A stretch of DNA of 20,000 nt from an uncultured virus (IMG/VR IMGVR_UViG_3300022926_000008) (lineage: Duplodnaviria > Heunggongvirae > Uroviricota > Caudoviricetes): the IMG/VR virus record IMGVR_UViG_3300022926_000008. One strand, 5' to 3'. The position numbers were made by a program, and so were the translations under genes. This document shows positions 4,902 through 18,046 of the stretch, piece after piece (position 1 is the stretch's first letter; every line of letters begins with the position of its first letter). The notes beneath the pieces were generated by a model. It was not told the DNA's origin and made no database searches. It saw nothing but the letters and a program-made list of their open reading frames with translations.

Positions 4902-4930
4902 TTGACAAAGCTCATGCAGTCATATATACT
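4902..4930 (+). promoter_or_regulatory. SigA/sigma70-type promoter for the tRNA cluster
   Basis: TTGACA (4902-4907), 17 nt spacer, TATACT (4925-4930), 13 nt before tRNA-Asn. Confidence 0.8.
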
Positions 4931-4943
4931 GGTTGCATGACAT

Positions 4944-5015
4944 TGGCCACTAGCTCAACGGCAGAGCAGAGAGCTGTTAACTCTAAGGTTCCTGGTTCGA
5001 ATCCAGGGTGGCCAG
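4944..5015 (+). tRNA. tRNA-Asn (GTT)
   Basis: Acceptor TGGCCAC/GTGGCCA, anticodon loop CT-GTT-AA (4976-4978), T arm CCTGG-TTCGAAT-CCAGG; no encoded CCA. Confidence 0.95.
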
Positions 5016-5357: not shown

Positions 5358-7943
5358 ATGAGCGATGAGCCAAAATGCCCATTTCCGCATGAAAAGGTGC
5401 AAGGTGCCAAAGCACTAGCTACTGGTGAAAGTGCTAGAAAGTGGTGGCCAAATCAAGTTTCTGTGGATGCACTGCAACGCAATGGACAGAACAACAGCCC
5501 TTTTGAGAAAGACTTTGACTATTCAAAGGCTTATTCGGAGCTAGATCTCGAAAATTTAAAAAGCTTTGTGTTCGCCCTGATTACAAATTCTGGTCCAAGG
5601 TATGAAGAGGCAATTGCCGCTAGAGGTTTGGATGCAATGCCGTATGGTCAAAAGTACTGGTGGCCAGCCGACTGGGGGCACTATGGCCCTCTGTTTATTA
5701 GGCTAGCTTGGCATGCTGCTGGAACCTATAGAGTTAGTGACGGTCGTGGCGGTGCTGGCAGGGGAATGATTAGGATGGCCCCTCTTAACTCTTGGCCAGA
5801 CAATGTTAATCTAGACAAGGCAATGAGAATTCTGTGGCCAGCTAAGGAAAGGTTTGGAGACGGGATCAGCTGGGCTGACCTGTTTATTTTGGCAGGTAAC
5901 CTTGCTCTGGAGTCAATGGGATTCAAGACACTGGGCTTTGCTGCAGGACGAATTGATTCGTATGAAGAAGACGATACGTACTGGGGCAACGAAACTGCAT
6001 GGCTAGCTAATGAGAGACATCGAGAGCAGACTATTCTAGATAACCCATTAGCAGCAACCCACATGGGATTAATCTATGTTAATCCAGAAGGCCCAGATGG
6101 CAATGCTGAAGATTTTACTGGGGCTGCTAGAGATATTAGGATTACATTTGGCCGAATGGCAATGAATGATGAAGAGACCGTTGCCCTTATTGCTGGAGGC
6201 CACGCTTTTGGTAAGGCACACGGCAATGGTGATCCATCTAAGGTCGGTGAGCCGCCAGCAGGAGCCCCCATTGAGCAGATTGGGTTTGGTTGGAAAAATG
6301 CTAATGGCAAGGGCAATGCTGAAGATACCGTGAGCAGCGGTCTTGAGGGGGCATGGACCCCAACACCCACCACTTGGGATAACAAGTACCTAGAGCTTTT
6401 GTATAAGTATGAGTGGCAAAAGGTTTTAAGTCCAGCAGGAGCACAGCAGTGGGAGCCAATTGACTGCCAGCCAGAAGATATGGTTCCAGACGCACACGTT
6501 AAGGGCAAGATGAATAAGCCAATGATGCTTACGACAGATCTAGCCCTAAGATTTGGCGACCCAGAATATGATCGAATTGCAAGATCTTTTGCAGAAGACT
6601 TCGATCGCTTCTCAGATGTTTTTGCCAAGGCATGGTTCAAGCTAACTCACCGTGACATGGGGCCCCTGGACAGATACCTTGGTGATGAGGTACCAGAAGA
6701 AGTATTTACTTGGCAAGACCCAATTCACAAAAATACTTTCCCTGAAATTACTGATAAAGATATTAATAATTTAAGAGGCAATATTATTAAAGAGCTAGAA
6801 ACTACAGGGATTACCTTAAGCTATAACAACAAGGGGTATATTGAAAATAGAAAGCTTGACGTTCGGGATTTGGTTTTTACTGCCTGGGTGTCAGCCAGCA
6901 CGTATCGTGATAGCGATAGGCGTGGTGGTGCTAATGGTGCAAGGATTCTTCTGGAGCCAATGAAATCATGGGAGTTTGTAGACTATGAGCGTGCCCACAA
7001 AACAGTAACATTTTTGACAGAGATCAGAGACTCGCTAAAGATTGAGATGTCGATCGCTGACCTGATTGTTGCTGGAGGAAATATTGGTGTAGAGATTCTG
7101 GCTAAAAATGCTGGCTTTGAGCTTAAAATGCCATTTGTTGGTGGCCGCGGTGATGCTACTCAAGATCAAATTGATGTCGAGTCTGTAGGTCACCTAGAGC
7201 CAGTACATGATGGTTTCTTGAATTGGACCAAAGTAAAGCGTAGCTATGGCGATGGTGATAGCTCATCTAGTGCCGTTGGCGATGAAGATGGCTCAGTTAA
7301 CGGCTACTTTGGTGTCGAGCTAAGTGAAGACGACCTTGAGCTCTTGCCAATTTTGGGTAATGAAAATACTCAGGCAAACGTTTCTGAAGATTACCCTACT
7401 CTGTATGGTGATGCGACTGCCGATAGCGATGTGTACGTAGAGCTATCTGAAGACTCGTTTGTTCTAGAAGAGTTTGCAGAGTACCTAATGATTGAAAGGG
7501 CAGACCTTCTAAATCTAACTCCTAAAGAGTTGGTGGCATTGCTAACTGTATTTAGATCTGCATCTATTTATCACAGGTCATCTACTCTGAATAGAGACTC
7601 TACGTACTCTCCTGGTGACAATTGGAAGATTGGCACAGAGTTCTTGGAGCACATGGTGCTAAAAAGTTGGTATGCTTGGGAAGAGGCTAAGGAGCCTGAC
7701 GACACTGAAAAGGTAACTACCTACGATCACCCAGCAAAACAATTTATTGGCAAACACCTGCACCCAGATAGCCCAACTTCATTCCGTGCTAGTCGCGTAG
7801 ACCTATTGTTGGCTTCTAATCCTATTTTACGTGGGATCTGTGAGTTCTATACTCAGGCTGGCGGGCTGCAAAGACTAGTAGATGACTTTGCAAGTGCATG
7901 GAACAAGGTCATGATGCTTGACAGATACGACGTTAAGCGATAG
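5358..7943 (+). CDS. katG: Catalase-peroxidase KatG, enlarged (861 aa)
   Basis: KCPF N-terminus, [22 protein letters not shown] (distal Arg/Trp/His), [10 protein letters not shown] (adduct Tyr), [17 protein letters not shown] (adduct Met, proximal His), [20 protein letters not shown] and C-terminal KVMMLDRYD. Confidence 0.96.
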
Positions 7944-7954
7944 AATAAAGGATC

Positions 7955-8028
7955 GCCCTCTTAGCTCAGCTGGCCAGAGCAACGCACTTGTAATGCGTAG
8001 GTCATCGGTTCGAATCCGATAGAGGGCT
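7955..8028 (+). tRNA. tRNA-Thr (TGT)
   Basis: Acceptor GCCCTCT/AGAGGGC, anticodon arm ACGCA-CT-TGT-AA-TGCGT (7989-7991), T arm ATCGG-TTCGAAT-CCGAT. Confidence 0.96.
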
Positions 8029-14905: not shown

Positions 14906-15379
14906 ATGCAAACATTTTTACCGTTTAAAGACTTTGATGACTCTGCCAAGGCACTTGATAATAAGCGTCTCAACAAGCAGATTCTAGAATGCTATCAAAT
15001 CCTTAAAGTCCTTAACAACCCAGACCCGCGGGCTGCATGGCGTAACCACCCTGCAGTTAAGATGTGGCGTGGTTATGAGCAGGCACTATTTCTTTATGTG
15101 CAGGCAATGATCAAGCAGGCTAAGCTGCGAGGCATCAAGACTGACAAGAACGAAGCCAACATTCACGCTCTCAGGCTACAAACTATTTCCCAGTGGGGTA
15201 ATGGATACCCCGAATGGTACATTAAGGATATCGACAGGGTGACAGAGTCCCACCGAGCTAACCTGTACCGCAAAGACCCAGAGTTCTATCATGATTTTAT
15301 TATGGATGAAGCCAATCCATGCTGCGATAGATGTCAGTACTACTGGCCAACACACATGGAGGTTATCAATGTCAGCTGA
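14906..15379 (+). CDS. Pyrimidine-dimer DNA glycosylase / MSMEG_6728-like protein
   Basis: MQTFLP...LDNKRLNKQILECYQI, W-x-NHPAVKMWRG, SHRANLYRKDP and YYWP motifs. Confidence 0.82.
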   Translation: MQTFLPFKDFDDSAKALDNKRLNKQILECYQILKVLNNPDPRAAWRNHPAVKMWRGYEQALFLYVQAMIKQAKLRGIKTDKNEANIHALRLQTISQWGNGYPEWYIKDIDRVTESHRANLYRKDPEFYHDFIMDEANPCCDRCQYYWPTHMEVINVS

Positions 15380-15713
15380 TGCTTTCGATGAGTACGATGG
15401 ACTTAGCGAAGAAGAAAAAGAAATTGCCCAGCAGTTCTATACCCTGGGATTTGAAGAAGGCTATGATCAGGGCTATGATACGTGTGAGCTAGAAAGTAGC
15501 TCCTATACTGATGGAAAAGATGTGGGTTTCCAGGAGGGCATCCAGCTTGAACGTAATCGTGTCTACCAAATTTGTTCTATGCAAATGGAGTGGGCAGAGC
15601 AAAACAACAAGGGGCGAGACTATATCTTCTGGAAAAATGTCAGGGAAGTCTTGCAGCCAAAAGACTTTGAGCCAATGTCACAAGAAGAATACGACGAATG
15701 GATTAATGAATAG
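15369..15713 (+). CDS. Acidic hypothetical protein with GxxxG repeats
   Basis: Start moved to ATG 15369 (SD GGAGG 15358-15362); GFEEGYDQGYD and GKDVGFQEGI repeats. Confidence 0.7.
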   Translation: MSADAFDEYDGLSEEEKEIAQQFYTLGFEEGYDQGYDTCELESSSYTDGKDVGFQEGIQLERNRVYQICSMQMEWAEQNNKGRDYIFWKNVREVLQPKDFEPMSQEEYDEWINE

Positions 15714-15715
15714 TA

Positions 15716-15724
15716 TGCTATAAT
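15716..15724 (+). promoter_or_regulatory. Extended -10 promoter of hsp20
   Basis: TGC-TATAAT, predicting a start near 15730-15731. Confidence 0.7.
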
Positions 15725-15729
15725 ACTAT

Positions 15730-15783
15730 TGCCTTGCCAAATGGGAGGCACAAATATTAACTCGCTGAAAAGGAGAAATAATG
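15730..15783 (+). promoter_or_regulatory. ROSE-like RNA thermometer in the hsp20 5' UTR
   Basis: Hairpin 1 TGCCTT/GAGGCA (15730-15750). Hairpin 2 CTC-G-CT gaaa AG-GAG (15761-15775) pairs the SD with a bulged G and contains the ROSE U(U/C)GCU motif. Confidence 0.65.
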
Positions 15784-16197
15784 GTTAATACTGCTATGGA
15801 TCTATTCAAGGATCCTTTTTTTATTGGTGTCGATCGAGAGCTTAATCGACTAATGAATGTACACGGAGCTGCTGTAAAGCAGTCATATCCACCCTATGAT
15901 ATCGTTCAGGTAAATGAGGATAACTATATCCTTAAGCTTGCTGCCGCTGGGTTTGCCAAGGACGATTTGGATATCACCGTTAAAGATGGTACTCTAGTAA
16001 TTACTGGAGACAAGACGGAGGCAGACGAATCCCACTACTTGCACAAGGGCATTGCAATGCGTAAATTTACGCGTACCTTTGCTCTTGGGGAGTATATGGA
16101 AGTGGCATCTGCTGAAATGGAGCACGGTATTTTGCACGTTAGTGTAAGGCGAGATGTTCCAGAAGAGAAGAAGCCACGCACCATTACAATCAAGTAA
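15781..16197 (+). CDS. Small heat shock protein Hsp20 (IbpA-like)
   Basis: SYPPYDI, LAAAGF, YLHKGIAMRKFTRTF, GILHV and C-terminal ITI motif. Confidence 0.95.
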   Translation: MVNTAMDLFKDPFFIGVDRELNRLMNVHGAAVKQSYPPYDIVQVNEDNYILKLAAAGFAKDDLDITVKDGTLVITGDKTEADESHYLHKGIAMRKFTRTFALGEYMEVASAEMEHGILHVSVRRDVPEEKKPRTITIK

Positions 16198-16228
16198 TAT
16201 AATTAAATAGTCATATTATAATAAAAGT

Positions 16229-16305
16229 GGTCCCCGCAGGACCTTAGGATGCTTAGTTACCATCTTTGACCGCGGCACTCGTGTTGCAATTTCCCTGCGG
16301 GGGCC
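16229..16305 (+). ncRNA. Candidate structured small RNA (three-way junction)
   Basis: P1 GGTCCCCGCAGG/CCTGCGGGGGCC (12 bp), P2 AGGATG/CATCTT, P3 GCGGCA/TGTTGC; TATAAT (16217-16222) is 6 nt before P1; G-U pairs favour the + strand. Confidence 0.55.
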
Positions 16306-16307
16306 TC

Positions 16308-16336
16308 TTGACATTCATCAGGTTTTAGTGTAAAAT
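16308..16336 (+). promoter_or_regulatory. SigA-type promoter, leaderless transcript
   Basis: TTGACA (16308-16313), 17 nt spacer, TAAAAT (16331-16336), ATG 7 nt downstream with no SD. Confidence 0.8.
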
Positions 16337-16343
16337 ATTACTT

Positions 16344-17327
16344 ATGAGAGAGACGACACTATCCCTAATTGTAATTACTTCCCTACTGTCTGGATGCACT
16401 ACTGCTCCAGAGGTGCAAGAGCAAGACAATGCTTCTAGCAGGTCGGCGGCACCACTTCTTTCACAGTCAGCTGTAGTAGAGCCAGTGGCAATAGAGCCAT
16501 TCGAGCCATGGTCTGAAACATTTTCCCGTAAGCAGCTGGGCACTGCAGTCATGTTAAAAATGAATGAGTATTTTGATGCCAACCATGTTGATGATTGCAA
16601 GTGGGAAGGGCAGATCCATTTAGAAAAAAGCTTATCTGTTATGACAGAGGTAGAATCTGTTATGGAAAAGACAGTTAGTACTTTTTGTAACATACTTCAG
16701 GACGACCCAGTAACTATTATCAGTAGTTATGGTTTTGTTAAAACAGTTTTAGAAGATCTTGATAGGCCAACAGATGACCACGGCGGTATTTGCGGAGGGC
16801 CTGGTGCTGGGATGAACACTGGCTGTGCTTTGTACCATGCGTCCTGGGTCAGCAATAGGCTAGACGGCAACATGATTATTGGAGTAACTGCTCACGAACT
16901 ATTTCATAATGTTCAGGATGCAATGAAATCTGGTAGACCATTTTGGAGAACGCCAGGACATGACGAAATGTTTACCCCTCACTGGTTTTTAGAGGGCGGT
17001 GCAGTAACTTACCAGTCAGCAATGGGTGACTATTTGGGATACTGGGACTATACAGCATATGATGCTTATAGCAATATGCTTGCGGCATCTCCTAATACTA
17101 ATATTAATCTACAGTCCCTAGAAACTGGGGGAAGCTTTGATGTCTATGTTGTGGGCCAGTTTGCCACAGAATATCTTGTTGCACATATTGGAATTGATGG
17201 CCTGCTAAACATCATTCCCAAGATTGATAATGGCAAGACATTTGATGAGTCGTTTGAAAGTGTTGTAGGGATGTCTTTAGAAGACTTTTATGCAAAAATG
17301 TCTCGTATCCAGATTATAAATGACTAA
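16344..17327 (+). CDS. Lipoprotein zinc metallopeptidase (gluzincin-like)
   Basis: Signal peptide with lipobox LLSG-C; AHELFH (HExxH) and downstream WFLEGGA (third ligand Glu). Confidence 0.8.
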   Translation: MRETTLSLIVITSLLSGCTTAPEVQEQDNASSRSAAPLLSQSAVVEPVAIEPFEPWSETFSRKQLGTAVMLKMNEYFDANHVDDCKWEGQIHLEKSLSVMTEVESVMEKTVSTFCNILQDDPVTIISSYGFVKTVLEDLDRPTDDHGGICGGPGAGMNTGCALYHASWVSNRLDGNMIIGVTAHELFHNVQDAMKSGRPFWRTPGHDEMFTPHWFLEGGAVTYQSAMGDYLGYWDYTAYDAYSNMLAASPNTNINLQSLETGGSFDVYVVGQFATEYLVAHIGIDGLLNIIPKIDNGKTFDESFESVVGMSLEDFYAKMSRIQIIND

Positions 17328-18046
17328 TAAATTACTCTATCGTGCCACATATTGTAGTGATTGTTGCCCCCTGGGACCTTGCTTTCACCAGTAGGTATCC
17401 CGATATCACCGTGGTTTGGTTTGTATAACACAAATGGTTTCTTGTGACTATTTAAATAAAAGCCTTTAGGTAAAGAATCTGGTACGTAGAATAAAAATTT
17501 TCCAAAAACTTGTTTGTGGTCGTATTTCAATCTTTGAGATGCTATGGCTGATCCAAAAACATTAGGGCCAGTTGGACAAGTAGAGCCAAAGCCGTAATAC
17601 TTGTTTTCAACGTTTTCAATACATCTGTCTACAGATTTTTGCAAAACTTCGTGGCCCTTGTCAGCATAGAAAACACTATTTTGAACAGCCCATGAAGAGT
17701 TAGAGGTGCCCTGCACTTCTGCAAAAACAACCAGCTCCTTATCTGAAAGCCTATATTTTTGTGGGGCAGCAGTAAAATAGTTATTTTGATCCATATACCA
17801 CCCACCAGTTTTATGTATAATATAGTATCTTGCAATATCTGCCTTATAAGCATATGGCTTAATATTATTAATTGCTTTTAGAACGTCTGTTGCACCGTCA
17901 TCCTTAAGCATTTGAGTGAAGCGTGGCAAATCCCAAAAATGATATTCGGCAGATGGCAGAAACTCTTTTATGTTGTCAATGTTAGGCGGCGTGTAGCCAT
18001 CTAGATCATCCCCCGAAAAGGCAATTTGGTGTATAATATTAATCAT
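17324..18046 (-). CDS. Glycosyltransferase, GT32 / DxD sugar-binding family
   Basis: IIHQI N-terminus, KADIARYYII and GGWYMDQN (DxD position read as DQN); GPNVFG. Confidence 0.8.
   Translation of the reverse strand: MINIIHQIAFSGDDLDGYTPPNIDNIKEFLPSAEYHFWDLPRFTQMLKDDGATDVLKAINNIKPYAYKADIARYYIIHKTGGWYMDQNNYFTAAPQKYRLSDKELVVFAEVQGTSNSSWAVQNSVFYADKGHEVLQKSVDRCIENVENKYYGFGSTCPTGPNVFGSAIASQRLKYDHKQVFGKFLFYVPDSLPKGFYLNSHKKPFVLYKPNHGDIGIPTGESKVPGGNNHYNMWHDRVIY

Follow-up and report, generated by a model that had tools for sequence, protein, structure and literature searches.

A conserved three-way-junction RNA of an uncatalogued family encoded downstream of hsp20 in uncultured aquatic phages

The spacer downstream of hsp20 in this phage DNA encodes, on the + strand, a real, conserved and structured RNA of an uncatalogued family. 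It folds into a three-way junction whose stems covary among relatives, occurs once per phage record and is preceded by a conserved −10 box. On balance, the element probably represents a single-copy gene whose product is a free-standing structured RNA of about 77–85 nt that acts in trans via an invariant loop; we infer the 5′ start and the 3′ end of this RNA, its action in trans and its partner along the lines set out below.

The window, by which we mean the whole stretch of 20,000 nt that was analysed, is of phage origin as judged from its gene content (ribonucleotide reductase, ThyX, M23 lysin, pyrimidine-dimer glycosylase, hsp20 and 2OG oxygenases), and it carries five tRNA genes. The three-way-junction RNA sits in a spacer of 146 nt between hsp20 (15781–16197) and a gene for a 327-aa protein (16344–17327). 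Within this AT-rich spacer the 77 nt from 16229 to 16305 form a GC-rich island, as described in the earlier note, with 59.7% G+C as compared with 9.7% in 16198–16228 and 26.3% in 16306–16343. The spacer region had no blastn match in 50,697 phage records and is absent from G001 (14 kb), the record nearest to the window. The closest match of the Hsp20 protein among isolates is only about 40% identical, and the phage is therefore without a cultured relative. The features of the locus are the following:

15781..16197, + strand: hsp20, the usual upstream neighbour (Pfam HSP20, E 2.4e-20; PHROG 432, E 2e-37)
16217..16222, + strand: −10 box TATAAT of the RNA gene, ending 6 nt before G16229, the first paired base
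16229..16240 with 16294..16305, + strand: closing stem P1 of 12 bp, one of them a G-U pair, from the minimum free energy (MFE) fold
16229..16240, + strand: 5′ strand of P1, GGTCCCCGCAGG, predicted 5′ end of the RNA (MFE fold, covariation)
16241..16245, + strand: linker J1/2, ACCTT, which together with the next bases makes up the conserved CTT[A/G]G
16246..16266, + strand: hairpin P2, AGGATG/CATCTT, with the 9-nt loop L2 (CTTAGTTAC); holds the invariant UAGUUACC
16267..16271, + strand: linker J2/3, TGACC, variable and AT-rich in relatives (alignments A4 and A5)
16272..16287, + strand: hairpin P3, GCGGCA-CTCG-TGTTGC, apparently a structural arm
16288..16293, + strand: linker J3/1, AATTTC, consensus gaAU.. 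(column conservation in A4)
16294..16305, + strand: 3′ strand of P1, CCTGCGGGGGCC, where the RNA is predicted to end and the hsp20 transcript may end as well (covariation)
16308..16336, + strand: promoter of the 327-aa gene, TTGACA-17 nt-TAAAAT, with 11 of 12 consensus matches

The MFE fold of the RNA from 16229 to 16305 (+) is a three-way junction of −33.9 kcal/mol (z = −2.92), and a single one of 200 shuffled sequences folded as stably. This fold is identical to the one previously drawn by eye from the letters, i.e. a 12-bp stem and two hairpins joined by the linkers ACCTT, TGACC and AATTTC. The opposite strand of the element adopts a different and poorer fold (−27.9 kcal/mol, z = −1.76, equalled by 10 of 200 shuffles). 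Once relatives are compared, the structure is far beyond chance.

The earlier note had proposed to collect homologues downstream of hsp20 and to look for covariation, and both steps were productive: homologues exist, and they carry strong compensatory changes. A total of 80 viral contig loci, collected via Hsp20 relatives, were screened by nhmmer and then with the covariance models R1 and R2; by these models the element is present downstream in 19 of them. A pattern of the palindromic stem returned three identical copies (3/39 loci), and among 80 loci retrieved by a DNA pattern based on the two conserved loops 26 match the model, the rest being chance matches. Of 80 loci derived from the HNH protein discussed below, i.e. 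without any use of the RNA sequence in their selection, 76 match the model, and two of the four misses have less than 60 nt of upstream DNA. Including the window, this amounts to 125 loci with 63 distinct sequences in 88 distinct contexts of ±150 nt. When the DNA pattern was applied to bacterial and archaeal genomes, at least 120 matches were listed, and none of the 80 examined matches the covariance model. Exactly one match is found in each of five phage records (70–102 kb, two of them at least 93% complete), a copy number that disfavours a generic terminator or a dispersed repeat. The element is widespread in uncultured phages from aquatic samples that form a large clade and have genomes of about 100 kb.

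Covariation was assessed with 39 distinct sequences aligned to the covariance model (24 pairs, 936 cells). In this alignment, which is fitted to the structure and thus favours pairing scores, 89.2% of the cells are paired, and 17 of the 24 pairs show double-sided changes. All 12 pairs of P1 have changes on both sides, with 95.7% of the cells paired; in P2 the corresponding values are 96.6% and double changes in three of six pairs, and in P3 the core GGC/GCC pairs are retained. None of 500 shuffle controls reached any of five covariation measures, and sliding the 3′ partners by 1–3 columns made pairing drop to 33.5–56%. RNAalifold run on the same rows predicted P1, P2 and the core of P3 unaided, and an earlier, smaller sequence set gave the same covariation picture. 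G-U pairs make up 162 of the 936 cells, and pairing of the complementary strand would be 71.9%; the share of G-U pairs thus identifies the element as an RNA read from the + strand rather than as a DNA palindrome. Mutual information among the unpaired columns revealed no tertiary pair exceeding the phylogenetic signal.

The sequence UAGUUACC, which comprises the P2 loop plus its closing, is invariant in 63 of 63 distinct sequences. The word TAGTTACC is likewise present in all 63, including 35 that were reached via the HNH protein without the RNA sequence, as is CTT[A/G]G (CUU[A/G]G in the RNA) at the junction of J1/2 and P2. The P3 motif GGCnnTnGTG occurs in 54 of the 63 distinct sequences; one subgroup has a GCAA-capped arm in place of the P3 loop, and the sequence of L3 is therefore not essential. 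J2/3 varies freely among relatives. Given that the P3 loop is replaceable and the P2 loop invariant, P3 seems to serve as a structural arm, and P2 to be the working end of the RNA.

Two minor observations concern sequences related to these parts of the element. Three loci (L063, L066 and L070, at about 2920–2990) have a different, short hairpin array 3′ of hsp20 and a −10 box; this array holds GGGC-TAGTTA-CCC, which contains the TAGTTACC word of the invariant loop, and gives no match to R2. In L002, L173 and L060 the 3′ strand of P1 (GGGGGAT) could pair with ATTCCCC located 5 nt downstream to form a competing hairpin, a feature that is not conserved across the RNA family.

The TATAAT at 16217–16222, which the earlier note took for the −10 element of the RNA itself, ends 6 nt before G16229 and turned out to be conserved. 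A box, defined by at least five of six matches to TATAAT with A2 and T6 required and by an end 2–8 nt ahead of the model start, is present in 37 of 39 distinct sequences, as compared with 5.9% for any position of the same loci and 19% for AT-rich positions. Across all sets, the box lies just upstream in 58 of the 63 distinct sequences. In the other five it is found about 40 nt upstream, with a 33-nt hairpin insert (GTCGGGGGAGACAGCGAC) between box and P1; its retention in spite of this displacement is as expected if the box starts the transcript. A promoter element of its own is thus conserved with the RNA (37/39; 58/63 plus five displaced), as one would expect for a free-standing gene. Whether hsp20 or one of at least six other genes lies upstream, the RNA keeps its box, which in most relatives overlaps the hsp20 stop codon. 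The tRNA-Thr gene of the window, which starts 8 nt after its −10 box, has the same layout. Several points weigh against a free-standing gene: the window box is without a recognisable −35 partner, TATAAT-like hexamers are common in AT-rich spacers (the 19% mentioned above), contigs from RNA libraries are co-linear with hsp20, and the P1 stem of the window is not followed by a U tract.

The hairpin insert is part of a portable 5′ module consisting of the −10 box, 6–7 nt, the hairpin GTCGGGGGAGACAGCGAC and about 15 nt (..AAATA.CTGG.AT). This module precedes the RNA in L155, L143, L380, L402 and L410 and a pseudoknot-like motif in L019, L042, L055 and L076; hence, it fronts two different RNA elements.

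The RNA does not belong to a catalogued family as far as Rfam 15 (4227 models) is concerned, and its supposed novelty held in this respect. At gathering thresholds the whole window yielded only five tRNAs, all of them elsewhere, and a permissive run (E up to 10) over 16100–16450 added only three chance-level snoRNA matches (E 1.8–8.5, far below threshold); RF02996 (int-alpA-like) did not appear even at this E value. In the literature we found no description of the three-way-junction RNA. The 8,495 candidate structured-RNA models named 'DNAVirus_' that were predicted from IMG/VR (PMC10690425) have the same source and are the same type of object, and our RNA would comply with their requirements of covariation and at least three hits. 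None of these candidates has a shown function, and six contig numbers of RNA loci are absent from the one table of that source that was compared; the set could well contain the RNA as an unnamed model.

Among the catalogued phage RNAs, the pRNA of phi29 (RF00044) invites comparison as it also has its own promoter and a three-way junction that presents two loops. It differs from the RNA described here, which gives no Rfam match, is half the size and occurs in phages of about 100 kb that are not phi29-like. Moreover, L2 and L3 are not complementary, as they would be in loops that connect a pRNA ring, and L3 is replaceable.

We propose that host RNA polymerase would start at the −10 box, which would place the 5′ end of the transcript on the first base of P1 or immediately beside it. 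P1 may seal both ends of the RNA in the manner of a tRNA acceptor stem and thereby make it stable, and it would mark the end of the RNA and probably also that of hsp20 messages reading into the element. The junction could serve as a rigid scaffold that presents the invariant P2 loop UAGUUACC, flanked by conserved linkers. From the invariant loop alone, we infer that the RNA would act in trans through this loop by binding a protein. Protein binding appears likelier than antisense pairing because the conserved single-stranded sequence is short and confined to a closed loop, and because the RNA has no complementarity to the only evident target nearby, the start of the HNH gene; also, no antisense target of the RNA was found. 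A protein sponge or an anti-defence decoy, as suggested in the earlier note, would be candidate roles of this type.

Only a few small RNAs encoded by phages have a known role. The comparative support for this one, with a covarying stem, an invariant loop, a single copy and a private promoter, equals that for many accepted RNA families. A loop that never changes, held on a rigid scaffold, suggests that the RNA has a specific macromolecular partner, the identity of which would open up a piece of phage–host biology.

An alternative that we regard as unlikely holds that the element merely forms the 3′ end of the hsp20 mRNA, i.e. a structured terminator or stabiliser, and that there is no separate RNA. 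It would account for the position of the element, which starts 31 nt past the hsp20 stop codon, for the 12-bp G+C-rich P1 and for the tails of the relatives, which are moderately T-rich, 5.1 of the first 10 nt being T on average, and have TTT within their first 8 nt in 12 of 39. The overlap of the −10 box with the hsp20 stop codon in most relatives fits the same picture, and so do the RNA libraries. Parts of 15000–17500 are contained in 22 metatranscriptome runs, salt-marsh samples among them, the best three of which cover 73–89% of the sampled words. In X4, X5 and X6, hsp20 and the 5′-terminal 48, 47 and 32 nt of the element, respectively, are present on a single contig; in X1, one contig extends from hsp20 across the whole element and reaches the next gene. 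The contigs of the former three libraries end at 16276, 16275 and 16260, and these libraries contain no contig over 16277–17274. Assembled contigs do not map transcript ends, cannot show strand or level and may contain DNA, and their ends are not taken as a sign of termination. No discrete RNA of 75–85 nt was seen among them, and they fall just short of the finding by which the earlier note would have withdrawn its proposal, hsp20 mRNA 3′ ends mapping to the element. The 5′ part of the element is thus at least partly co-linear with the hsp20 message in RNA libraries.

Several points argue against a mere message end. Terminators do not preserve a junction and an unvarying 8-nt loop while the Hsp20 proteins of the relatives have diverged to 57–70% identity with that of the window. 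In addition, the element is present in one copy per genome, and in eight loci (L150, L163, L149, L197, L121, L143, L001 and L002) it lies behind a gene other than hsp20; the −10 box is conserved at a fixed distance. In the window there is no U tract after P1, as had been noted before (the tail reads TCTTGACATTC), and a simple terminator scan did not call the element on the + strand. Where a terminator would have a short loop on its GC-rich stem, P1 encloses 53 nt with two conserved hairpins.

The arrangement with hsp20 is reminiscent of 3′-UTR-derived small RNAs of the MicL/DapZ type, which have an internal promoter and share the terminator with the upstream mRNA. Here, too, the end of the preceding reading frame harbours part of the promoter, and small RNA and mRNA would share the end stem. 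RNAs of the MicL/DapZ type are, however, Hfq-dependent antisense regulators that act via a seed, whereas the RNA of the phages is a closed three-way junction that is also encoded away from hsp20.

The hsp20 genes themselves are accompanied by other candidate RNA elements. In the window, an extended −10 box, TGCTATAAT, at 15716–15724 is directly followed by a hairpin at 15730–15750 (loop GCCAAATGGG) and then by a strong Shine-Dalgarno sequence. The hairpin, of which a covarying counterpart exists in L017 (GGTCACCTGCCAAATGGGGGTGGCC), might stabilise the 5′ end or serve as RNA thermometer of the heat-shock gene. Downstream of hsp20 and a −10 box, about 50 further loci of the 80 hsp20 loci, plus L005 (2650–2681), L013 (2641–2672) and L031 (2955–2986), have another motif, NNNN-CCUGAGCAUG-NNNN-AUAAA-CUGCUC, in place of the three-way junction; it is not found in the window. 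Its outer 4-bp stem and the GAGCA/UGCUC pairing covary (e.g. GGACA/UGUCC and GGGUA/UACCC); this pattern hints at an H-type pseudoknot or an attenuator. The CCUGAGCAUG motif usually precedes a Shine-Dalgarno sequence and a zinc-ribbon-like gene (MPRYDYKC...) and has no Rfam match at gathering thresholds; a loose regular expression matches 54 of the 80 loci, a few of these matches being false.

In relatives, the RNA is usually located between hsp20 and a small gene for an HNH nuclease, a strong link that the earlier reading of the sequence alone had overlooked. The window, like some relatives, is without HNH gene. The product of about 90 aa is an HNH endonuclease (PHROG 2255, E 3.8e-24; PHROG 3106, E 1.1e-21; Pfam HNH weakly, E 0.0073), and its gene starts about 28–30 nt downstream of the RNA in 32 of 39 distinct sequences. 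Conversely, the RNA is present upstream and on the same strand in 76 of the 80 HNH-derived loci, and 43 of 199 viral loci have an HNH match, only one of which is without the RNA (42/43). This association suggests a further explanation, namely that the RNA is a cis leader or insulator of an HNH homing-endonuclease cassette that limits expression of the nuclease. We deem this rather improbable. The 80 HNH-derived loci are close relatives (at least 73% identity), and the link between RNA and HNH gene may thus simply reflect inheritance. The RNA is found without an HNH gene next to it in 7 of 39 distinct sequences, where other genes or a convergent gene follow; the HNH-free cases are the window and its three near-identical copies, L150, L163, L187 (cut short), L001, L149 and L197. 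In four loci, RNA and HNH gene are about 830–900 nt apart. A second conserved −10 box, without a Shine-Dalgarno sequence, is located between the RNA and the ATG of the HNH gene. The candidate role of an anti-start-site leader that acts by loop complementarity was not supported either, as RNAduplex comparison of the element with −25..+25 of the HNH start in 29 loci gave a mean z of 0.03 relative to shuffled targets.

The gene that follows the RNA in the window likewise has its own promoter, with TTGACA at 16308–16313 and TAAAAT at 16331–16336, which begins 3 nt after P1. The ATG at 16344 lies 7 nt past TAAAAT and is not preceded by a Shine-Dalgarno sequence; judged from this layout, which the earlier note had recognised, the mRNA of the 327-aa gene is probably leaderless. 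With a full promoter in between, the RNA is not a leader of this gene, in agreement with the previous assessment of a riboswitch as unlikely. An interposed promoter, complete in the window and represented by the second −10 box in relatives, is not what one would expect downstream of a 5′ leader. The N-terminus of the 327-aa protein (..LLSGC) resembles a lipoprotein signal. The gene has no family match, was found only in the near-identical copies of this phage and is missing from the other loci with the RNA; hence, the HNH gene is not a simple insertion relative to the window.

A precedent for the neighbourhood of a stable RNA and a homing nuclease gene is the tRNA region of phage T4, which encodes the small stable RNAs C and D and has the homing endonuclease gene segB among them. 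RNA C and RNA D resemble the RNA described here in being phage-encoded, tRNA-sized, structured, located in or near tRNA clusters and placed beside a homing nuclease gene; they are cut from a tRNA precursor, whereas our RNA has its own −10 box. By analogy with segB, the HNH gene may be a selfish homing gene that settled beside a stable-RNA gene and would not be the target of the RNA, even though the linkage in 76 of 80 loci would also fit a functional tie. The family would then provide a clear example of a conserved RNA gene with a homing nuclease gene parked next to it, and the window phage, being without HNH gene, offers a natural nuclease-free form of the locus in which the homing idea can be tested. 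Searches for the T4 capsid (PF07068) and portal (PF07230) proteins in G002 and G003 gave no matches, the control genomes being likewise silent.

The C-terminal domain of IF3 docks at the 790 loop of 16S rRNA, which also takes part in a subunit bridge. If the P2 hairpin mimicked this loop of helix 24, the RNA might be a decoy for a factor of the 30S platform such as IF3, an explanation to which we assign a very low probability. The majority 12-mer GGAUUAGUUACC agrees with E. coli 16S rRNA 785–796 at 11 of 12 positions, a match equalled anywhere in the rRNAs by 24 of 3000 shuffles in a comparison that was made post hoc and with the rRNA of E. coli, which is not the host. Moreover, the P2 loop consists of 9 nt closed by a G-C pair, as does the 790 loop according to PMC4613259. 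Binding of the IF3 C-terminal domain to the 790 loop, with a tenfold loss of affinity upon a change at position 791, is documented in PMC3130014, and excess IF3 inhibits translation of leaderless mRNAs as stated in PMC9031893; the gene that follows the RNA in the window is leaderless in its layout. If the mimicry were true, the RNA would soak up IF3 or another platform factor and thereby tilt initiation towards the leaderless, Shine-Dalgarno-less messages of the phage. For the invariant part alone, however, the likeness does not exceed chance: the invariant 8-mer matches rRNA at seven of eight positions, which 1919 of 3000 shuffles also achieve, and the 9-nt loop at eight of nine (666 of 3000). 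The loop of the window itself, CUUAGUUAC, fits the 790 loop less well than the majority sequence, and all 63 sequences share the single difference of the latter, A792 to U. Local alignment of all elements with the E. coli rrn operon produced equal or higher scores at scattered, unrelated places and no extended likeness to rRNA.

Finally, an origin from a tRNA by degeneration, or a role as tRNA-like processing signal, is most improbable for the RNA: its size is that of a tRNA, the 12-bp stem has the length of the stacked acceptor plus T stem of a tRNA, and same-strand tRNA genes are located within ±2.5 kb in 10 of 27 loci scanned, but it has three arms rather than four and, as noted earlier, no T-loop motif, neither ARAGORN nor the Rfam tRNA model (RF00005, E up to 10) detects a tRNA at the element, and the tRNA genes of the window are 8–11 kb away.

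The tRNA genes of the window deserve mention in their own right. tRNA-Thr and tRNA-Asn each have a near-consensus σ70 promoter (7918–7955 and 4902–4944, respectively), and the distance from the end of the −10 box to the 5′ end of the mature tRNA is 8 nt and 13 nt, respectively; with −10 boxes this close, little or no 5′ processing would be needed. Between two tRNA blocks lies a gene for an 861-aa protein (5358–7943) with a haem peroxidase domain (PF00141, E 1.6e-47, in two stretches) and no PHROG match, an unusual auxiliary gene in a phage.
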